DNA from: a virus
Lineage: Duplodnaviria > Caudoviricetes
Strand: one strand, 5' to 3'
DNA: 28,335 nt
IMG/VR virus record: IMGVR_UViG_3300031951_000945
Coordinates: 1-28,335 of that record
Shown in pieces: positions 1,787 through 15,352 of this stretch. The notes under the pieces were generated by a model. It ran no database searches, was not told the DNA's origin, and saw nothing but the letters and a program-made list of their open reading frames with translations. A program made the position numbers and the translations under genes. The stretch's first letter is position 1. The number at the start of each line of letters is the position of its first letter.

Positions 1787-1795
1787 TGCTATAAT
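1787..1795 (+). promoter_or_regulatory. Extended -10 promoter (TGCTATAAT), near-leaderless, for the protease gene
   Basis: TGnTATAAT in a 40-nt intergenic gap, 9 nt before ATG 1805, with no Shine-Dalgarno. TTGAGA at 1765-1770 is 19 nt upstream (poor -35 spacing). Confidence 0.7.
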
Positions 1796-1804
1796 GGTAA
1801 CGTT

Positions 1805-3115
1805 ATGTTAACAAACAAGGCTCATTGGGTAACTGAAGGTGACAATGTTCGCCTCTCAATGCCCATTGGAAAAGTAGATGTTGAACGCCGTATGGTGTCA
1901 GGTTTTGCAACGCTTGATAACGTTGATAAACAAGGAGATATTGTAACAACAGAGTCCAGCGTTGAAGCGTTTAAAAACTTCCGTGGAAATCTACGTGAAA
2001 TGCACCAACCTTCAGCAGTTGGCAAGATTGTTTCTTTTAAAGAAGATAAATATTTTGATCCAAATGATAAGAAATTTTATAGCGGAGTATATGTATCTGC
2101 ATATGTTTCAAAGGGCGCACAAGATGCATGGGAAAAGGTTCTAGACGGAACCTACACTGGTTTTTCAATTGGTGGAAATATTAAGACGTGGGACGATGCC
2201 TATGATGAAAAAATGGATAAGTCAATCCGTGTAATTAAGAATTATGAACTACATGAACTTTCTTTGGTAGACAATCCAGCAAACCAGTTTGCCAACATTG
2301 TATCTATTGAAAAAGTAAATGGACAAAATGTTGTTAGTGGATATTTATCAAAAGCAGAAGTTGAAAACGTATTTTGGGATTCAGAAAGCGGTATCGTAAT
2401 GTTATCAGACGCTGAATCAGCAGTAAGTCCAACTAACGGTAACAAGATGCAAAACATAGGCTTTGTAGAAAAGAATGATAAAGATAATACAGAAATGATA
2501 AAATTCTTAGTTGATAGTGCTAAAGGCATTAGTACAATTAAGATTACTAAGGAGGTAAATCCCATGACAGAATCAACAGAAACAGCCGTAGACGCTGTAG
2601 TTGAAAATGCAGAGGTTGCTCCAGAGGCACAACCAGCAGAAGTTGTAGAAACTCCTGCAGTTGCTGAAGAAGTTGCAGTTGCTGAGGAAGCACCTGTAGC
2701 AGAAGCAGTTGACGGTGGTGCAGACTCTGCTGTTGCTGAAGAGGCACCAGTAGAGGTAGAGAAAGCAGAAGAAGCAGTGGTAGACGCCGTTGCAGAAGTT
2801 AAGGAAGAAGTTGCTAAAGCAGTTTCAGAAATTAATGCTTCTCTTACTAATGCCTTTGGCGATCTTGCTGCAACTATTAAGTCTCTTAATGAGCAAGTAG
2901 CAGCAGTAACAAAGTCTCTTGATACAGTAACATCTGATGTTAACAATATTAAGGGTAACTTTAATGAGTTTGGCAAGCGAGTAGATGCCGTTGAGCAAGA
3001 CACCGCTTTCCGCAAGTCTGGCGATCTAGGCGAGATCGTGCAGGAATCACCACAAGTGGTTCAAAAATCCCTATGGGGCGGTCGTTTCCTCACAAATACC
3101 GACCTATTTAACTAA
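1805..3115 (+). CDS. Prohead maturation protease (HK97-type) fused to C-terminal scaffold
   Basis: N-terminal protease motifs VSGFATLDNVDKQGDIV, LREMHQ (His), GFSIGG (Ser), ELSLVDNPAN. C-terminal half is Ala/Glu/Val-rich then coiled-coil-like. Lies between portal and capsid genes. Confidence 0.9.
   Translation: MLTNKAHWVTEGDNVRLSMPIGKVDVERRMVSGFATLDNVDKQGDIVTTESSVEAFKNFRGNLREMHQPSAVGKIVSFKEDKYFDPNDKKFYSGVYVSAYVSKGAQDAWEKVLDGTYTGFSIGGNIKTWDDAYDEKMDKSIRVIKNYELHELSLVDNPANQFANIVSIEKVNGQNVVSGYLSKAEVENVFWDSESGIVMLSDAESAVSPTNGNKMQNIGFVEKNDKDNTEMIKFLVDSAKGISTIKITKEVNPMTESTETAVDAVVENAEVAPEAQPAEVVETPAVAEEVAVAEEAPVAEAVDGGADSAVAEEAPVEVEKAEEAVVDAVAEVKEEVAKAVSEINASLTNAFGDLAATIKSLNEQVAAVTKSLDTVTSDVNNIKGNFNEFGKRVDAVEQDTAFRKSGDLGEIVQESPQVVQKSLWGGRFLTNTDLFN
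2511..2556 (+). promoter_or_regulatory. Internal promoter (TTGATA-16-TACAAT) and strong RBS (AAGGAGGT) within the protease gene
   Basis: TTGATA 2511-2516, TACAAT 2533-2538, AAGGAGGT 2549-2556, in-frame ATG 2564. Confidence 0.65.
2564..3115 (+). CDS. Nested in-frame capsid scaffolding protein (183 aa, MTESTETAV...)
   Basis: AAGGAGGT 7 nt before in-frame Met254, at the point where composition switches to acidic low-complexity and coiled coil; analogous to lambda C/Nu3. Confidence 0.8.
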   Translation: MTESTETAVDAVVENAEVAPEAQPAEVVETPAVAEEVAVAEEAPVAEAVDGGADSAVAEEAPVEVEKAEEAVVDAVAEVKEEVAKAVSEINASLTNAFGDLAATIKSLNEQVAAVTKSLDTVTSDVNNIKGNFNEFGKRVDAVEQDTAFRKSGDLGEIVQESPQVVQKSLWGGRFLTNTDLFN

Positions 3116-3142: not shown

Positions 3143-4300
3143 ATGTCGGAACAAAATACAAATATAGAAAAAAACTATCCAGGTTCAGCAGGAGCAGGTA
3201 ATGAGGTAAACTCACAAGGCTCATTCGTATCTGGAGGTGTTGGTGGTGCAACAGGACGCAATGCTGATGGCAACGTAAGCCCAGCAGAAGCACTTGGTAA
3301 CACTGCAACTGCAGCCTTTGGTTCAACATCAGGAGCAAATGCTGTAAATCCTACAGGAGTTTCTGGTGGTATTCTAGCACCTGAACAAGCACGTCGTTTT
3401 ATTGACTACGTGTGGGATGCAACAGTTCTCGCCAAGGATGGCCGTAAGGTCACTATGCGAGCAAACACCATGGAAATTGAAAAGGTTAACGTTGGAGAGC
3501 GTGTTATCCGTGCAGCAGCACAGGGTGCACCAGACTACACAAACGTTGGCGCAACATTTTCTAAGGTAGAACTCACAACAAAGAAGATTCGTCTTGACTG
3601 GGAAGTTTCTACAGAAGCACTTGAAGACAATATTGAAGGAGCAGCACTTGAAGATCATCTAGTTCGCTTGATGACAAATGCGTTTGCTAACGATATTGAA
3701 GATCTTGCTATTAACGGAACAGGAACAGGCGCAGATGCCTTCCTTTCAATCATGCCTGGCTTCGTTGCTCAGGTAAACCAAGTTGCAGGAAATGATGCTC
3801 ACGAAGCAGCAGTAACTGTATCTGATAACGAGTGGACACCAGCAGTTATGCAAGACATTATCTTGGCTATGCCACGTAAGTACCGTGCACTTAAGAGCAA
3901 TCTTAAGTTCTACGCAGGTACTGACGCATTCCAAGGAATTGTTAAGAATAACGGTACACTTGCTGATGCAATCGCAGAAGCAGTTGCTGGACAAGTTCCA
4001 GGAAGCACTCAAGCAAACCGTCAAGCATACCTTGATGGCGCAGGACAGACATTTGGTAACTCACGTACAACTCGTGTACTAGGTGTAGATGTTCTTGAAG
4101 TTCCTTACTACCCTGCAGGATATGTAGATCTTACATTCCCACAGAACCGTGTATGGGGCTTCCAGAGAGACATCACTGTTAACCGTGAATACAAGCCAAA
4201 GAAGGACACAATTGAATACACAGTATTCGTCCGTTTTGGTATTCAATGGGAAGAACTAGATGCTGTATCTTATGCAGATGCAGACTCAACTGATTCATAA
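3143..4300 (+). CDS. Major capsid protein (HK97 fold)
   Basis: GGILAPEQARRFID, VELTTKKIRLDWEVSTEALEDNIEG, FANDIEDLAINGTG, LGVDVLEVPY and RDITVNREY motifs. SD AGGAGGT 3129-3135 favours ATG 3143. Confidence 0.93.
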   Translation: MSEQNTNIEKNYPGSAGAGNEVNSQGSFVSGGVGGATGRNADGNVSPAEALGNTATAAFGSTSGANAVNPTGVSGGILAPEQARRFIDYVWDATVLAKDGRKVTMRANTMEIEKVNVGERVIRAAAQGAPDYTNVGATFSKVELTTKKIRLDWEVSTEALEDNIEGAALEDHLVRLMTNAFANDIEDLAINGTGTGADAFLSIMPGFVAQVNQVAGNDAHEAAVTVSDNEWTPAVMQDIILAMPRKYRALKSNLKFYAGTDAFQGIVKNNGTLADAIAEAVAGQVPGSTQANRQAYLDGAGQTFGNSRTTRVLGVDVLEVPYYPAGYVDLTFPQNRVWGFQRDITVNREYKPKKDTIEYTVFVRFGIQWEELDAVSYADADSTDS

Positions 4301-4361: not shown

Positions 4362-4370
4362 TGGTATAAT
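4362..4370 (+). promoter_or_regulatory. Extended -10 promoter (TGGTATAAT)
   Basis: TGnTATAAT immediately after the hairpin; AGGAG at 4384-4388 precedes ATG 4394. Confidence 0.7.
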
Positions 4371-4393
4371 TACAAATGAACGTAGGAGATTAT

Positions 4394-4729
4394 ATGACAA
4401 TGGAAGAATTAGCAACAAAGACCGTAATGGAACTAAAATCTTATGCTAAGAAAAATAACATTGATTTATTTGGGGTATCTACCAAATTAGAAATTTTAGA
4501 AGTAATTGCTAGTTTTAATCCAGAAAAACCAAAAGATGATGTTGTAGAAGAAAAGAAAGCAATTGAAAAAGTTGCCCTTTACTCTGAAAAGAACATCTAC
4601 TGGGGTGGACTTGGAGAACTAAAGGTGGGGTATAACATCGTCTCAAAGGAGGCATCGGAAAAGTGGATTACTCGCAAGGCAGTCAGAATTGCACAGCCTG
4701 AAGAAGTAGCCTCATACTACGGTAAATAA
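4394..4729 (+). CDS. Small protein with N-terminal Rho-N/HeH-like helical domain
   Basis: EELATKTVMELKSYAKKNNIDLFGVSTKLEILEVI matches the L..xTV.ELK..AK...I......K.E++..I pattern. Start 4394 has SD AGGAG; alternative start 4376. Confidence 0.65.
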   Translation: MTMEELATKTVMELKSYAKKNNIDLFGVSTKLEILEVIASFNPEKPKDDVVEEKKAIEKVALYSEKNIYWGGLGELKVGYNIVSKEASEKWITRKAVRIAQPEEVASYYGK

Positions 4730-8157: not shown

Positions 8158-8195
8158 AAAAGCCCATCTCTAACGAGGTGGGTTTTTTGTTTTGT
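8158..8195 (+). terminator. Intrinsic (Rho-independent) terminator
   Basis: AGCCCATCTC-TAAC-GAGGTGGGTT stem-loop (with G:U pairs) followed by TTTTGTTTTGT. Confidence 0.88.
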
Positions 8196-8198
8196 CTG

Positions 8199-8207
8199 TG
8201 ATAGAAT
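8199..8207 (+). promoter_or_regulatory. Extended -10 promoter (TGATAGAAT), near-leaderless
   Basis: Directly after the terminator, 9 nt before ATG 8217, no SD; same spacing as 1787/1805. Confidence 0.6.
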
Positions 8208-8216
8208 AGAAAGATT

Positions 8217-8912
8217 ATGGCAACAAATGTATATCAAAGTAAAAATATAAAATTAATTAATGGAGAAGAGTTAGAGATTACTCCATTAAAAATAAAATAT
8301 CTCCGTGAATTTATGGAGGCTTTTGATGACGTTAAAAAATCAAAAAGTGATGACGAGGCCGTAGAATATTTAGTTGAATGTGTAAGAATTTCAATGAAGC
8401 AGTTCTATCCAGAAATATCAAAAAATAAAACAGACATAGAAGATAGTTTTGATATGCCAACAATATATACAATACTAGATATATCTGCTGGAATTAAAAT
8501 AAATGAAAAATCACAGGAAACAGTAAAGGACCAAGCAACAGATAGCGGTTCAACCTGGTCAGACCTAGATTTAGCAAAAATAGAATCAGAGGTATTTTTG
8601 CTGGGAATTTGGAAAGACTATAAAGAATTAGAAGAGTCATTGTCTATGCCAGAATTAATGGCTACATTATCAAGTCGCAGAGAACTTGACTATGAAGAAA
8701 AAAAGTTTCTTGCTGCAATTCAAGGAGTAGATTTAGATAAAGAGTCTGGATCAAATAAAGGACAGCAAGAGTGGGAAGATATGAAGGCTAGAGTATTTAG
8801 TCGTGGAGCAACAAATGATAGCAAAGATATTTTAGCGCTTCAAGGACAAAATGCAAAGAAAGCAGGGTTTGGAATTGGCATGGGTCTTGATTATGAAGAC
8901 CTTAGAAAATAG
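8217..8912 (+). CDS. Tail assembly chaperone, long GT-like form
   Basis: Between tube and TMP genes. N-terminal 97 aa are paralogous to the next ORF; the C-terminal extension (LAKIESEVFLLGIWKDYKELEESLSMPELMATL) is continuous in frame. Confidence 0.75.
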   Translation: MATNVYQSKNIKLINGEELEITPLKIKYLREFMEAFDDVKKSKSDDEAVEYLVECVRISMKQFYPEISKNKTDIEDSFDMPTIYTILDISAGIKINEKSQETVKDQATDSGSTWSDLDLAKIESEVFLLGIWKDYKELEESLSMPELMATLSSRRELDYEEKKFLAAIQGVDLDKESGSNKGQQEWEDMKARVFSRGATNDSKDILALQGQNAKKAGFGIGMGLDYEDLRK

Positions 8913-8920
8913 CGTTTCTG

Positions 8921-8950
8921 TGCTATAATTGCTATTAACCTATAGGAGGA
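8921..8950 (+). promoter_or_regulatory. Extended -10 promoter (TGCTATAAT) and strong RBS (AGGAGGA)
   Basis: TGCTATAAT 8921-8929; AGGAGGA 8944-8950; ATG 8954. Confidence 0.72.
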
Positions 8951-8953
8951 ATA

Positions 8954-9283
8954 ATGGCAACAACTACGCATGAGGAAACAGTCCTTACGCTAATTGATGG
9001 CACAAAGGTTACAGTACGTCCTCTAAAAATCTCTCTACTTCGTCCATTTATGAAGAAGTTTGAGGGTGTGGGAGCAGTGGCGGATAACAACGAAAAATCT
9101 ATGGACATTCTTATGGAATGTGTTCAGATTGCGATGAAACAATACAAGCCAGAACTCTCAGAAGACGTTGAAAAGTTAGAAGAGATTGTTGATCTTCCAA
9201 CTGTTTACAAGATTGTTGAAGCAGCATCAGGTGTAAAACTTGCTGAAGTTTCAGACGTTCTTGGCGTAACTATGGCTGACTAA
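8954..9283 (+). CDS. Tail assembly chaperone, short G-like form
   Basis: 109-aa acidic protein just upstream of the TMP; paralog of the preceding ORF's N-terminus. Confidence 0.78.
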   Translation: MATTTHEETVLTLIDGTKVTVRPLKISLLRPFMKKFEGVGAVADNNEKSMDILMECVQIAMKQYKPELSEDVEKLEEIVDLPTVYKIVEAASGVKLAEVSDVLGVTMAD

Positions 9284-9304: not shown

Positions 9305-12300
9305 ATGGCTGATGTTAATGCAAATATTGACATTAATATTGATTCGTCTGCTGCATTAGCACAGTTAAAATCTCTCCAACGACAGATTGCACAGTTCCAT
9401 ACCTCAATAGCCAAATCAAGTGAGGCAGCAGCACTTGCCCAAAGAGGCTTACAAAAAAATCTTTTAAATAGTATAAACGCAATTAGTGGCCTTACAGCCG
9501 AAATGCGTACAGTAAAAACATCTGCAGAATCTTTTACAAACTCACTAGAAAAAAACAAGTTTTCAATGCGAGAATACTTCCGCTATGCGGGAGCCTCAAC
9601 AAAAACATTTGGTCGTCTATTTAAATCAGAGTTTGACACAATTGGCAGGGTAGCAGAAGAACGTGTAAAGAGACTCCAAACACAATACATTAAGATGGGC
9701 CGTGATACAAACGGTGCAATGAAAGCAATGGCTATTATGCCTACCCAACTTAATATGGGTGATTATGGAACACAGGTTCAACTAGCAGCACAGAAGCAAG
9801 CATTATTTAATCAGTTAATGAAACAGGGCTCTACCAACCTATTGAACTTTGGTAAGAATACCCAGTGGGCTGGTCGTCAATTAATGGTTGGTTTTACCCT
9901 TCCACTTATGGCAGTTGGATCAGCAGCATCAAAAACATTCATGGAGATGGAAGCGCAATCTTTAAGATTTAGAAAAGTTTACGGAGATTTATTTACACCA
10001 CAAGAAGAAACACAGCAAGCACTAGATAACATTACAGCACTTGGTCAAAGTTTTACAAAGTATGGCGTAGCAGTATCTCAAACTGTTGGGTTGGCAGCAG
10101 AGGCTGCAGCAGCAGGTTTTTCTGGTTTAGATCTTCAACGTCAAACATCAGAAGCAACAAGACTTTCTGTGCTTGGTCAAATTGATAGTCAAAAGGCTCT
10201 TGAAACAACAATTTCATTACAAAATGCTTTTCGTATGTCATCTGAAACCCTTGCAGATTCTATTAACTTCTTAAACGCAGTAGAAAACCAAACGGTTGTA
10301 TCTCTAGATGATATTACAACAGCAATTCCAAAAGTTGCTCCAGTTATTCAACAACTTGGTGGAGATGTAAAAGACTTAGCATTTTTTATGGCAGCAATGA
10401 AAGAAGGTGGAATTAATGCATCAGAAGGTGCTAACGCACTTAAGTCTGGTCTTGCAGCATTAATTAATCCAACTAAAAAAGCATCAGACATGCTTAAGTC
10501 ATATGGAATTAATGCAACTGAGATTGTTCAAAAAAACAAAGGTGATCTTAAAGCAACTGTTATTGGTTTTGCTGAAGCACTAAATAGATTAGATCCACTT
10601 GCAAGAGCAAGAGCAATTGAACAAATGTTTGGTAAATTCCAATTTGCTCGTCTATCAACATTATTTGCCAACGTTGCTAGAGATGGAAACCAAGCATCTC
10701 GTGTTCTTGACTTAGCAAATTCTTCTGTTGAAGAACTTTCAGCACTATCTGAAAAAGAATTAGGCATGACCGCTGATTCTGCTATGAATAAATTTAAAAA
10801 GAGTGTTGAAGATTTAAAAATAGCCCTTGTTCCAGTTGGTCAGGCATTTTTACAAGCAGCAACTCCTATAGTTGAATTTGTTGGAAATATTCTTGAAAAG
10901 TTTGCCAATCTTTCAGAAGGAACAAAAAGAGTAATTACATTATTAACTGTTGGAATAGGTGCTGCTGGACCAGTATTGCTTATGACTTTTGGTTTGCTTG
11001 CAAACGGCCTTGCAAATATTATTAAACTATTCTTAACTCTTCGTAATGGATATTTAAGATTAACTGGACAAACACAGGTTCTTGGCGAACAAACACAATA
11101 TATGACAATGGAGCAGTTGGATGCTGCAGCAGCAGCACACTCTCTTAATCAAACACATGCTAACCTAACACAAACATTTACAGCAGAAGCATCTGCAGTT
11201 AAAGACTTAGTTAAAGCATATCAATCTGCAATTTTAGCATCATCAAAGTTTGCATCAGCAAATCCAGGAATGATGATGCCAATCAAGGGACGTAAAAAGT
11301 TTGCAAAGGGTGGGGTTGTTCCAGGATCTGGAAACGGAGATACTGTTCCAGCAATGCTTACTCCTGGTGAAGTGGTTATTCCAAAGGGTATTGCTAAAGA
11401 AAATATGTCGCTGCTTTCTTCATTAATGTCTGGCAAGGTTGCACGTAGATATGCAGAAGGTACATTAAATGTAGGTGGTAAAGCAGTTCAAATGCAGTTC
11501 TTAAATGCTAAGAACATGTCTGCTATACAGAATATTATTAATAAACTTGTTTCTGGTGCTGCTAAATTAAGTGATGCAGAAGGTGTTGTTGCTGAAACTC
11601 TTTATAGATTATCAACAGACACAAAAGCAAGTGCTACTAAATTTGTTAAAGAACTTGACATTGTTGCAGGAGAAATGGAAAAAATACAGATTCCTGAAAA
11701 CATTGTTGGAGAAAGAGATTATAGTGCATCTGGAGCGGGTATAAAGGGTAGTGTCGCAACACAATTAGGGACAACAAGAGGTGCTGCAGGTGCAGAAGAA
11801 TATCGTCGTGCACAAATTGCTGCAGAAGCAACTCAAAAGGCATACGAGGCAATGGGTGTAAGTGGTCAACAATTAGCACAATCAATTCAAGTAGACCGTG
11901 CACATATTGTTGAGGTAACGCAAGCAGAAAAACGCTACAGAGAAGCATGGGATACTAGATTATTTGTTGCACAGGCAAGAGCAGAAAATGAAATGAGTAT
12001 GCTTTTAACAAATGAAAAAAATCAAAAAGCATATGTAAGTGTTCTTCAGCAATCAGGTGAGTCTGAAGAAATGAAACGTTCAATACTCAATAAAATTACA
12101 AAAGATATTGCACTAACAGAAGATGAGTTACAGGCTCAAGTAAGAATCCTTGAAGCAATGCAAAAAGATACTGCACTTATGAAAACAACAACTGGACAGT
12201 TTGGAAGAGTTGCAGTTGGAACTATTGCTGCAGGTAAAGCAAGAGCAGCATTGGGTCCAGCATCCTCTGGTGTTGGTTCAAGAACTGCAGCAGAAACAGA

Positions 12301-15300
12301 GATGGCACGACAAGCATTAATTAGAACAAAATTTAGAGGCGATACAACATTTATTAGAAAATTACAAGGACAAGGAACACAGGCAGTTGATAATTTAATT
12401 ATTGCTATGGAAAAACGTGCACAAACAAAGTCTCCATCAAGAAGAACAAGAAAACTAGGAAAAGATATTATGTCTGGACTAGTTGTTGGAATGCAAGATG
12501 AAGAAAGAATCCTTCAGGCACAAGCACAAAAAACAGCAGATATTGCAACACTATCAAAAACAAGTTTATATGGAACAACAGGTGGAATTGATCCTGTTCA
12601 AAAATCTATTCGTAGACAATTAGATAAGAGAGCAAGGCTTTCTGAAATTCAACAGGGTATGGCAATAGGCCCAAATGTAATGGGTATGATGGGACAACAG
12701 CCAACACAAAAACCAAGCGTACTTGGAAGACTAAGAAATGTTAATCCAATGAAAGCAAGCATGGGGATTATGGGTATTGGAATGGCTGGCTCTATGCTTC
12801 CAGGAAGGGCTGGACAAGTTGCTGGACAGGCTACTGGTGCTGCATTTATTGCACAAGCACTGCTGATGCTTCCTGGACCACTTAAATTGGTTGCTGGAGC
12901 ACTTGCAGCAGGATATGGAATTATGAAAGTAGCAAACTTCTTTAGACAAAAAGAAATTGATGCTATTCAAGGTGTTGGTAGGGCTGCTAACTTAACGTCA
13001 ACACAATTAGATAAACTTGGAGAGGTTTTAGGGTTTACACCATTAAAGAGTAATCTTGAAATGGCAAAGCCAGCGGTATCTGGATTAACTACAGAACAAA
13101 GTAAACAAGTTGAAGAAACAAGAAAGTTATTAGCAAGCGATAAAGATTTTAAGGGACAGGTTAAAGCAGTTAGTAGTGCAACAGAACAAGAAGCAGACCT
13201 TATATTTAAATCTTTAGCCATAAGACTTGCTGGACAAGGTGCAACTAAACAAGCAATTCAGAACTATATCTATGCACTACAACAAGAAGCAGGAAGAACT
13301 GCTGTTAAGTTTGACCTAAAGAGTATTGACTTAAGTACAAAAGAAGGACGAGCAGGACTACAAGGTTCTATAAATACATTATTAAAAGACTATCAAACTG
13401 AATTTAATAAAGGATATAAGAAAACTAAGGTAGTTGTTGGTGGCGGAAAGGGTGGAGTAGTAGTAAAAGAGGTAGAAGTTTTAACTAAAGATCTTAAGAA
13501 ACAACTATCAACAGTTTCAAATGTTGTTGCTAATACCTTTATGGGTCTTGATACACAACTAAGATCTGGCATTATTAATGCAGATCAATTTAGTCAATCA
13601 TTTGATGGTATTTCTTCAAGTATACAAAAAATGCCAAAGGCCAACGCACTATACCTAATGTCAGAATTAATGAAGTCTCTACCTTCAGAACTTGCAAACT
13701 CAGCAGCAGGAATTAAAAATGTTTCTGATCAAATGATGATTCTCAAAGCAGCAACTCTTGGCGTGTCCGTGTCTGCAGCAATGCTTAGTGCACTTGCAGT
13801 GCAAAGTGGTGAAGGTGGAAGTGAGCGCACCAAGGGAAGAATTAGAGCACAACTAACAAAACAAATTAAAGAACGAATGAAAATGGCAGAAGAAATTGCA
13901 AACTCTCTTGGTGGAACAGAATCTGGAGGTGGAGCCCCAGGCCTTACTAATATGGAAAAATACAATAAGGCATATGCAATTATTAAGAATTTCTTTGATG
14001 CTCAAGAAGCACTAATTAGACGTCAAAGAAAGTCAGAAGCAGATCTATTACAGTCAAAGATTGATAATGCTCAAAAAGCAGTAGATGCTGCACAAAAAGA
14101 AATTGATGCTAAACAAGAATTAATTGATGCAAATAATCATGAAGCAGATTTATTAAATCGTAAAATTGAACTTAATTATGATAGACCAATTCAAAAGTTA
14201 CAAGATGAATCAACAATATTAAATAATAATCTTGAAATTATTCGTAAGCAAGAAGATGGAATTAATAAACAGTATGATGCACAAATTGACGCACTTGAAA
14301 AAATTTCATCACTTAATCAAGAACTTGCTACACAGGAAAAATCAAGACTTACAATTGCAGATGCACTAACATCTGGAGATATTTCTGCAGCAGCCTTTGC
14401 CGTACAAGAAGCACGAGCAGCCTCAGCAGCAGCAAGAATAGAGCAACAACAGACTTCAATGGAAGCATCACGCCAAGCAGCACTTATTGGACTAACTGCT
14501 GGTGGAATGACTAAAGATCAAATTGAAGCACGTACATATCAGATTGGCCAACAGACATTTTTACTTGAGCAACAAAAGAAAGTTTTGCAAGATCAGATTA
14601 CAGTTATTCAAGATAAAAACTATACGATTGAACAACAAATATATGCAATTAAACAAGCATCAGTAGTTCCAAATCAAAAAATTGTTGATAGCACTTCAGA
14701 AATTCTTAAAAATTATAATGAAACAACAGATAAAATAGTTGCTAGCGTTAAATATCTTGGACAAAGCGCAGATGCTTGGGAAGCAAATAGAATTAAAGTA
14801 GAGGCTGCAAATACACAGGTTGAGTTTACTAAGAAAAACCTACAGGCAGCAAAATCAGCAGCAGAGGGAATATTTGCAGCATGGAATAAAATAACAAGTA
14901 AAGTAATTACAATTACAACAAATTATGTTACTACTGGATCAACTTCTACAGCAAAGAAAATGTATGGTGGAAAAATAAATCCAATGTCTATGGGTGGCGT
15001 TGTACCTAAATATTTTGCAAGTGGTGGAAGAATAGGTTCTGATTCAGTTCCTACAATGTTAACTCCTGGAGAGTTTGTTGTAAATAAGGCAGCATCTAAG
15101 AGATTTGGACCATTGCTTGAATCTATTAATGAATCTAAATACCCATCAATGATTGGTTCTGGTGCTTCAGGTTATAGCACTCCAATTAATAATGTATCTA
15201 GTTCAGTAAGCGATAACTCTACGGCAGTGTATAATTATAGTTTAGGCTTTAACATTAATGGAACTAACTCAAATGCTAATGATATAGCAAAGGCAGTTAT

Positions 15301-15352
15301 GAGAGAAATTAAAAATGTTGATGCACAAAGAATTAGGGGACAAAGACAATAA
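9305..15352 (+). CDS. Tail tape measure protein (TP901-like core), 2015 aa
   Basis: Very long Ala/Gly/Gln-rich helical protein after the chaperones. Has TP901-type core motifs (GINASEGANALKSGLAAL, IEQMFGK), hydrophobic segments near aa 545-580 and 1150-1210, and a long coiled coil near aa 1560-1870. Confidence 0.95.
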   Translation: MADVNANIDINIDSSAALAQLKSLQRQIAQFHTSIAKSSEAAALAQRGLQKNLLNSINAISGLTAEMRTVKTSAESFTNSLEKNKFSMREYFRYAGASTKTFGRLFKSEFDTIGRVAEERVKRLQTQYIKMGRDTNGAMKAMAIMPTQLNMGDYGTQVQLAAQKQALFNQLMKQGSTNLLNFGKNTQWAGRQLMVGFTLPLMAVGSAASKTFMEMEAQSLRFRKVYGDLFTPQEETQQALDNITALGQSFTKYGVAVSQTVGLAAEAAAAGFSGLDLQRQTSEATRLSVLGQIDSQKALETTISLQNAFRMSSETLADSINFLNAVENQTVVSLDDITTAIPKVAPVIQQLGGDVKDLAFFMAAMKEGGINASEGANALKSGLAALINPTKKASDMLKSYGINATEIVQKNKGDLKATVIGFAEALNRLDPLARARAIEQMFGKFQFARLSTLFANVARDGNQASRVLDLANSSVEELSALSEKELGMTADSAMNKFKKSVEDLKIALVPVGQAFLQAATPIVEFVGNILEKFANLSEGTKRVITLLTVGIGAAGPVLLMTFGLLANGLANIIKLFLTLRNGYLRLTGQTQVLGEQTQYMTMEQLDAAAAAHSLNQTHANLTQTFTAEASAVKDLVKAYQSAILASSKFASANPGMMMPIKGRKKFAKGGVVPGSGNGDTVPAMLTPGEVVIPKGIAKENMSLLSSLMSGKVARRYAEGTLNVGGKAVQMQFLNAKNMSAIQNIINKLVSGAAKLSDAEGVVAETLYRLSTDTKASATKFVKELDIVAGEMEKIQIPENIVGERDYSASGAGIKGSVATQLGTTRGAAGAEEYRRAQIAAEATQKAYEAMGVSGQQLAQSIQVDRAHIVEVTQAEKRYREAWDTRLFVAQARAENEMSMLLTNEKNQKAYVSVLQQSGESEEMKRSILNKITKDIALTEDELQAQVRILEAMQKDTALMKTTTGQFGRVAVGTIAAGKARAALGPASSGVGSRTAAETEMARQALIRTKFRGDTTFIRKLQGQGTQAVDNLIIAMEKRAQTKSPSRRTRKLGKDIMSGLVVGMQDEERILQAQAQKTADIATLSKTSLYGTTGGIDPVQKSIRRQLDKRARLSEIQQGMAIGPNVMGMMGQQPTQKPSVLGRLRNVNPMKASMGIMGIGMAGSMLPGRAGQVAGQATGAAFIAQALLMLPGPLKLVAGALAAGYGIMKVANFFRQKEIDAIQGVGRAANLTSTQLDKLGEVLGFTPLKSNLEMAKPAVSGLTTEQSKQVEETRKLLASDKDFKGQVKAVSSATEQEADLIFKSLAIRLAGQGATKQAIQNYIYALQQEAGRTAVKFDLKSIDLSTKEGRAGLQGSINTLLKDYQTEFNKGYKKTKVVVGGGKGGVVVKEVEVLTKDLKKQLSTVSNVVANTFMGLDTQLRSGIINADQFSQSFDGISSSIQKMPKANALYLMSELMKSLPSELANSAAGIKNVSDQMMILKAATLGVSVSAAMLSALAVQSGEGGSERTKGRIRAQLTKQIKERMKMAEEIANSLGGTESGGGAPGLTNMEKYNKAYAIIKNFFDAQEALIRRQRKSEADLLQSKIDNAQKAVDAAQKEIDAKQELIDANNHEADLLNRKIELNYDRPIQKLQDESTILNNNLEIIRKQEDGINKQYDAQIDALEKISSLNQELATQEKSRLTIADALTSGDISAAAFAVQEARAASAAARIEQQQTSMEASRQAALIGLTAGGMTKDQIEARTYQIGQQTFLLEQQKKVLQDQITVIQDKNYTIEQQIYAIKQASVVPNQKIVDSTSEILKNYNETTDKIVASVKYLGQSADAWEANRIKVEAANTQVEFTKKNLQAAKSAAEGIFAAWNKITSKVITITTNYVTTGSTSTAKKMYGGKINPMSMGGVVPKYFASGGRIGSDSVPTMLTPGEFVVNKAASKRFGPLLESINESKYPSMIGSGASGYSTPINNVSSSVSDNSTAVYNYSLGFNINGTNSNANDIAKAVMREIKNVDAQRIRGQRQ

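Follow-up and report, generated by a model that had tools for sequence, protein, structure and literature searches.

Why nearly all long-tailed phages keep the G/GT frameshift is a standing question, for which ratio control, co-assembly of identical G domains and economy have to be considered. In lambda, the G protein coats the tape measure protein, and the T domain of GT recruits the tube protein; Xu, Hendrix and Duda are said to have found in 2014 that T binds the tube protein. Passages of PMC3296357 state that about 96% of lambda ribosomes stay in frame and that a high G:GT ratio is needed. Some T4-like phages, according to an excerpt of PMC10885494 (which cites Vladimirov, Gautam and Davidson 2022, Virology 566:9), encode the short chaperone and the fused long one in separate genes rather than by a frameshift. 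We observed that T4 gp26 and gp51 are paralogs (20% identity over 161 aa, E 2e-6). Genes 26 and 51 are presumably the two-gene chaperone pair of T4. In Streptomyces phages, the major tail and tape measure genes flank two successive ORFs, G and then T in the -1 frame; in Patelgo's GenBank entry the two are joined and labelled as a tail assembly chaperone. A single G copy was present in all 127 cultured Streptomyces phage records.

The DNA that we analysed (the window, 28.3 kb in full) is a linear virus record, about 26% complete, with portal, protease, capsid, tail, helicase, primase and SSB genes. Between its tube and tape measure genes lie two ORFs, of 231 and 109 aa (Table 1). Our main reading, to which we give a probability of roughly 0.8, is that two related genes, an in-frame fusion of G and T and behind it a G-only gene, likely supply the TAC-NC and TAC-N forms without a frameshift, and that a weak, near-leaderless start likely keeps the long form scarce. 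Among 50,697 annotated phage records searched, the only ones matching either protein were the 127 Streptomyces phage records, and all five of these that were inspected (Braelyn, Circinus, Coruscant, BoomerJR and Patelgo) are Stanwilliamsviridae. Since these are the sole annotated matches, an actinobacterial host is likely. Host labels across nine genome bins were mixed, both actinobacterial and Bacteroidota, and were left unused.

Table 1. Features of the two-gene locus and its neighbours in the window.
Feature	Position	Strand	Remarks
Major tail (tube) protein gene, 210 aa	7507-8139	+	42-45% identity to Streptomyces phage proteins annotated as major tail proteins
Intrinsic terminator-like hairpin with T tail, 3' of the tube gene	8158-8187	+	z -5.7, 0/200 shuffles
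Extended -10 TGATAGAAT of the long gene	8199-8207	+	9 nt 5' of the ATG; predicted near-leaderless, no Shine-Dalgarno (SD)
Long ORF, fused GT, 231 aa	8217-8912	+	
G (TAC-N) domain and linker of the long gene, residues 1-113	8217-8555	+	phrog_10504, E 2e-22
T (TAC-C) domain of the long gene, residues 114-231, in frame	8556-8912	+	phrog_10474, E 1e-14
Extended -10 TGCTATAAT of the short gene	8921-8929	+	24 nt 5' of the short ATG
Shine-Dalgarno AGGAGGA of the short gene	8944-8950	+	
Stand-alone G (TAC-N) gene, 109 aa, without slippery site and without T downstream	8954-9283	+	
Tape measure protein gene, 2015 aa, adjoining the short G gene	9305-15352	+	phrog_10030, E 9e-98; PF10145

The original prediction was that the two ORFs are paralogs, based on a manual alignment with 37 identities in 98 columns and one gap. 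BLASTP established the relationship, with 38 identities in 100 columns, one gap and E 2e-25. A second aligner gave 36 identities in the first 98 columns, which differs from the manual count within alignment noise, and a score of 200, where the best of 1000 shuffles reached 53. The codon-aligned DNA identity of the long and short G is only 55%, and the split must therefore be old. The profile phrog_10504 covered residues 1-102 of the long protein and phrog_10474 residues 131-221, while the short protein matched phrog_10504 alone. The extension of the long gene, put at about 125 aa beforehand, comes to about 118 aa; it runs in frame from W114 on, as had been claimed, and has no heptamer at the junction. 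Four columns are fixed differently between the long G and the short G. The pair K27-Y28 (window 8295-8300) is nearly fixed in the long G (96% and 93%), where the short G, and mostly also the near frameshifting relatives, have S-L; it is a candidate specialisation of the GT subunit.

We classified 425 fetched loci by tube, G, T and tape measure profiles on stop-to-stop frames. This set included the window and excluded L096-L097, and some of its contigs were fetched twice. Only two complete layouts were found, G then T in 236 loci and GT then G in 176, with 13 loci cut by contig ends; some of the locus searches covered the best 80 matches, and these counts are not population frequencies. Relatives thus show both of the alternatives posed beforehand, two paralogs or a slippery site. 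The order noted beforehand for the window, with the GT-like gene first, was seen in all 176 complete fused loci, and this layout is represented by at least 136 distinct genes. With queries from the nearest frameshifters, we found neither a GT + G + T nor a G-then-GT intermediate among the 425 loci. No complete GT-only locus was seen in the same set, the four GT-only loci all stopping at a contig edge.

In the G-then-T loci, T lay in the -1 frame with a heptamer in the overlap in all 175 distinct G|T regions among the matches listed. The heptamers were CCCAAAC (111), GGGAAAC (37), CCCAAAT (16), CCCGGAA (7), CCCAAAA (2), AAATTTA (1) and GGGAAAT (1), that is, 168 of the form XXXYYYZ and 7 CCCGGAA, and in the 49 regions inspected their position was mostly a conserved L-N-D-P motif. 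According to an excerpt of PMC10885494, no motif of this type is more frequent than CCCGGAA in annotated phage frameshifts. The -1 frameshifts predicted here in the relatives are likely. The T domain of the long gene shows 38-42% identity to the second chaperone ORF of Streptomyces phages, which lies in the -1 frame. The in-frame linker of the window matches the one predicted from the shift in the relatives, which is S/G-rich with W-x-x-L-D-L at its end. In one search, 6636 proteins matched at E <= 0.001, and the labels among those listed were mostly hypothetical; the G/GT assignment would correct the annotation of this large protein group.

An insert of about 780 nt lies between GT and G in L023-L026, L035 and L045, and one of 627 nt in L423, with a frame of about 210 aa that carries what we take to be a methyltransferase-like motif. 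The short gene behind the insert of about 780 nt retains its own -10 and SD. In L048, the short G gene (3253-3578) is split, with one base missing in an A run; this was seen in one of the 176 fused loci and is probably an assembly error. The frameshifting relative L147 has two tube genes in tandem (1231-2569). The tape measure gene apparently starts with ATA, just 3' of the T stop, in L001, L002, L004, L089, L099, L108 and L115, and the homologous codon of Coruscant (L003) is ATG. The GenBank starts of this gene in L001, L002 and L004 are about 90-110 nt 3' of the T stop. Such an ATA start is a possible non-canonical codon limiting tape measure output.

A tree was built from the tube protein, T and the N-terminus of the tape measure protein for 88 representatives of 325 complete loci, using a quick method and a midpoint root. 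The fused loci formed one clade (28/28, SH-aLRT 100) nested among 60 frameshifting rows. Fusion is the derived state, since many successive frameshifting lineages branch earlier and since the frameshift is, in the passages available of PMC12846349, the general state of tail assembly chaperones in long-tailed phages. When T was left out, the tree needed two layout changes, of which the starred branches force only one, and in a tape-measure-only tree of 55 rows the frameshifting L153 fell inside the fused group. A single origin of the fused layout is probable.

The long G and the short G each formed a clade as well (28/28; support 95 and 99). The short G is nearer than the long G to the near frameshifters (55.5% vs 41.5%), and has their commonest residue at all four diagnostic columns. 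Within-group identity is 62.9% for the short G and 50.3% for the long G, so that the long G evolves faster. The original prediction of a gene duplication came through in part: long and short G as sister copies were not rejected (p-AU 0.23 and 0.40), but the G trees did not recover them as sisters.

The same two-gene layout could also have come about if a fused GT had been captured by recombination from a sister lineage and not duplicated in place. The best G trees, with the short copies beside the near frameshifters and the long copies branching outside, would fit such a capture. However, the AU test leaves the clade of both copies standing, and a faster-evolving long G can draw its branch outward on 104 columns. 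Moreover, the long gene and the near frameshifters have T domains that lie close together, and none of the 425 loci showed a donor with a fused GT alone. We consider capture unlikely, though it is the best of the alternatives, and duplication in place is the simplest origin of the pair.

Separate expression signals had been proposed for the two genes: a restart of the long copy after a terminator, from TGATAGAAT 9 nt before its ATG and with no SD, and for the short copy a TGCTATAAT and AGGAGGA of its own. All of these elements were found at the locus. Taken alone, promoter-like matches are no more frequent in the window than chance predicts for such A+T-rich DNA (14 against 16.8 expected), and the TGATAGAAT and TGCTATAAT elements stand above chance because their position is conserved across loci. 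The SD and -10 patterns were applied in a strict and a looser version, and the long genes had no SD in either (0/58 and 0/110). TGnTAnnnT was present 5-9 nt before the ATG in 109 of 110 distinct long genes, and all 110 start with ATG. The hexamer of the long genes equals TATAAT in only 12 of 109 and departs from it in 97. The short genes had TGnTAnnnT in 116 of 116 distinct cases, with TATAAT in 112 and a spacing of 20-35 nt in 108. An SD-like motif preceded 112 of the 116 short genes and all 150 G genes of frameshifters (in shuffled sequences, about 9 in 100), and TGnTAnnnT preceded 139 of these 150 (in-band shuffles, 2-4%). This pattern of motif and SD suggests that the ancestral start persists in the short copy and that the near-leaderless start of the long copy is new.

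The spacers around the long gene differ too. The tube-to-GT spacer folds below -10 kcal/mol in all 115 distinct loci, and the GT-to-G spacer in only 14 of 115; as few of the latter fold, GT transcripts would read into G. Caulobacter reporters, as presented in part of bioRxiv 2020.05.06.081141, indicate that leaderless initiation favours AUG and drops about two-fold per extra leader base. The invariant ATG of the long genes fits this preference, and the analogy suggests that the 6-9 nt spacing may tune long-gene output.

Related arrangements were seen elsewhere in the window. In the protease gene, TGCTATAAT lies 9 nt 5' of the ATG and an SD is lacking, and the capsid gene that follows is preceded by an SD-like AGGAG (window 1787-1805 and 3134), so that this pair is leaderless-first and SD-second, the same design as GT-G. 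A 117-aa gene between the capsid and head-tail genes (window 4376-4729) has TGGTATAAT 5 nt before its ATG (window 4362-4376), and shows a weak N-terminal match to the endonuclease VII family phrog_3281 (E 1e-5).

We further estimated expression from codon use, taking as a proxy the log-odds of synonymous codons against the capsid gene of the window. The short G and the tube gene both scored 0.13, while GT scored -0.48, the lowest of 23 whole genes scored. The short G scored above the long G in 127 of 127 distinct fused loci (means 0.08 and -0.43), although these loci are related and the counts are not independent events. In A+T-rich frameshifters, by comparison, G scored above T in only 93 of 135 (means -0.09 and -0.21). 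The protease gene, despite its 9-nt leaderless-type start, had a mid-range score, and hence a leaderless start alone does not mean a scarce product. In four RNA runs, contigs of relatives covered parts of both genes, with a depth that cannot rank them and with DNA possibly present, and they were left out of the estimates of ratio and habitat; 20 of the 22 RNA runs listed held small shares only. Going by these proxies, start signals and codon use in more than 100 loci, G is likely made in large excess over GT. The idea that initiation strength sets the ratio is upheld insofar as signals and codon use differ between the copies in more than 100 distinct loci, but initiation is probably not the whole of it; promoter strength and read-through probably contribute as well.

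Alternatively, both genes may be expressed similarly, with a specialised long G that enters the chaperone spiral rarely, and the ratio would then be set by assembly and not by synthesis. The four columns fixed differently in the long G (e.g. K27-Y28 against S-L) fit this, and so does the efficiency that leaderless translation can have in actinobacteria. In M. tuberculosis, passages of bioRxiv 2020.04.22.055855 describe leaderless mRNAs as translated robustly and the advantage of SD genes as modest. However, the codon use of the long G is at a low-copy level in every one of the 127 loci, its -10 hexamer is off TATAAT in 97 of 109 genes against a match in 112 of 116 short genes, and a specialisation of the long G is compatible with low expression too. 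A ratio set by assembly is thus improbable, and we prefer a long form that is scarce because it is made sparingly.

Both ORFs are likely tail-assembly chaperones. We base this on the locus position and the conserved -1 overlap, as the fold and profile matches are individually not significant. As in other TAC loci, the two genes lie between the major tail and tape measure genes and give a short and a long form with a common N-terminal domain. The G/GT identity originally assigned is borne out by the relatives, in which the same modules are G and a -1-frame T, joined as one chaperone in Patelgo.

The AlphaFold model of the long protein had a mean pLDDT of 53, with a T part mostly under 50 and unusable; the model of the short protein (pLDDT 71.8) showed a beta-hairpin followed by helices. 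A Foldseek comparison, suggested at the outset, gave a mixed answer. The HK97 chaperone 2OB9 ranked first for both models but at sub-significant values (E 0.31 and probability 0.85 for the long, E 1.4 for the short), and the T part was unfolded. With VIA-align, three solved chaperones were among the top 8 rows for the short model, namely 3KLU (Z 5.1, rmsd 4.5, 85 aligned), 3FGX (Z 4.3, rmsd 4.5, 83 aligned) and 2OB9 (Z 4.0, rmsd 5.4, 86 aligned), all at Z under 8, where a match may reflect a common arrangement; 5IR0 gave Z 4.7 with 83-86 residues aligned. Structures with the TAC-N fold (HK97 gp13, YqbN and Rbstp2171) were thus at or near the top ranks, below significance. An excerpt of PMC9603447 identifies 2OB9, 3KLU and 3FGX as tail assembly chaperones and gives Z 4.4-4.5 for another one.

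The G alignment had weak matches to five PHROG chaperone families, PF17388 and PF23857 (1-2 of 51 members each), to PF12322 (5 of 51 G proteins) and to phrog_150 (a few). A PDB sequence profile search with this alignment gave nothing relevant, Pfam gave no family at cut-off for either window protein, and comparison of profiles with lambda G and lambda T detected no sequence match. For the T domain, neither Pfam nor PHROG gave a named family; among named Atlas clusters, the nearest to it have PF06223 Phage_tail_T in 23-37% of their members (score 0.87), which is a lead only. The chaperone fold of G is weakly supported by the models. That the proteins are another tail-associated pair would agree with the lack of any significant fold or profile match, and with the GenBank chaperone labels of relatives being annotators' calls and not experiments. 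Against it stand the position between the tube and tape measure genes, the -1 overlap with a slippery heptamer in 175 of 175 regions, and the convergence of independent weak matches (five PHROG chaperone families, PF17388, PF23857, 2OB9, 3KLU and 3FGX), and we regard it as very improbable.

A lambda-type locus has one gene, a -1 T and a heptamer in the overlap; the window has T in frame, as do 136 distinct genes. At its junction there is neither an XXXYYYZ nor a CCCGGAA heptamer. Elsewhere, the long gene has two A-rich heptamers in frame (8420 and 8699), which are not conserved. No junction heptamer was present in 125 of 136 distinct fused genes, and none was common to the rest. Likewise, 115 of 124 distinct short genes had no heptamer in their last 22 codons, and a gap of 11-40 nt separates the short gene from the tape measure gene. 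The frameshift-free solution claimed for the window therefore extends to 136 distinct genes, with T in frame and no conserved slippery site. That the long gene still gives a short product by recoding (+1 into a stop, or -1 inside T), the frameshift having moved, is scarcely credible: 99 of 134 fused genes have a +1-frame stop where the ancestral G ended and 43 of 136 have A-AAA-AAG at Lys-Lys in T, which would suit it, but neither is invariant, both follow from the Leu-Asp and Lys-Lys codons in A+T-rich DNA, and junction synonymous sites vary freely. As hidden recoding signals, the relic +1 stop and A-AAA-AAG were rejected, not being conserved.

Returning to the fused GT followed by a stand-alone G, we propose the following history. 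The ancestor would have had a terminator, a strong promoter with SD, G, a -1 slippery site, T and the tape measure gene, and its promoter-G(-T) unit would have doubled. In the upstream copy, T would have become fixed in frame, with leader and SD lost. In the downstream copy, the slippery site and T would have disappeared while the strong promoter and SD stayed, and this copy would still head the tape measure transcript. The GT-first order would follow, since a GT behind G would sit on the strong G-tape-measure transcript. In operation, the terminator would separate GT from the tube transcript, and GT would depend on a weaker promoter of its own and have no SD; G would come from the GT transcript by read-through and from its own consensus promoter with SD. 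As in lambda, G would coat the tape measure protein, and the few GT would recruit the tube protein via T.

A more ambitious version can be put forward only tentatively, at a little under even odds. It holds that a widespread uncultured, likely actinobacterial phage clade swapped the frameshift, which ranks among the most conserved in phages, in a single traceable step, in which GT was throttled by a leaderless, off-consensus promoter behind the tube terminator, G retained the ancestral strong signals, and the G domain of GT, once uncoupled, gained fixed residues of its own. If true, this would mean that the frameshift is kept only for ratio control and compactness, and that it constrains G. 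It would also make leaderless versus SD starts the phage's general dial for virion-protein stoichiometry (compare the protease-capsid pair).

In the literature covered by our search, which left most subscription papers outside, we found no description of a GT-then-G layout in the clade of the window. The novelty is lowered by the two-gene solution already reported for T4-like phages. The strategy itself is known; new are a traceable independent origin and a testable regulatory mechanism, and not a new principle.

Like lambda gpG/gpGT, the locus lies between the major tail and tape measure genes and gives a short and a C-terminally extended long form. Unlike lambda, it has two genes, 38% identical, with no slippery site, the long one first and a promoter-like element for each. 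As in the T4-type system (defined for T4 in passages of PMC10885494), TAC-N and TAC-NC come from separate genes, without a frameshift. Whereas the T4 genes are divergent, on opposite strands, those of the window are in tandem with GT first. No significant profile match to T4 gp26 or gp51 was found, the weak PF12322 and phrog_150 hits of a few G proteins apart, and hhalign probabilities against the single sequences were under 3%; the window's system apparently originated independently of that of T4, in a lineage related to Streptomyces phages. In contrast to T4, close frameshifting sister lineages survive, and the transition is thus traceable.

The closest likeness is to the Stanwilliamsviridae, which have a homologous G (35-41%) and T (38-42%) with the same neighbours, and likewise a terminator, an extended -10 and an SD ahead of G. 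Unlike the window, they have one G and a -1 T, with C-CCA-AAT or C-CCG-GAA at L-N-D-P. Together, these comparisons place a frameshift-free clade among living frameshifting sisters with alignable sequences, for which cultured Streptomyces relatives exist. This is a cleaner natural experiment than T4, whose two genes are only 20% identical.
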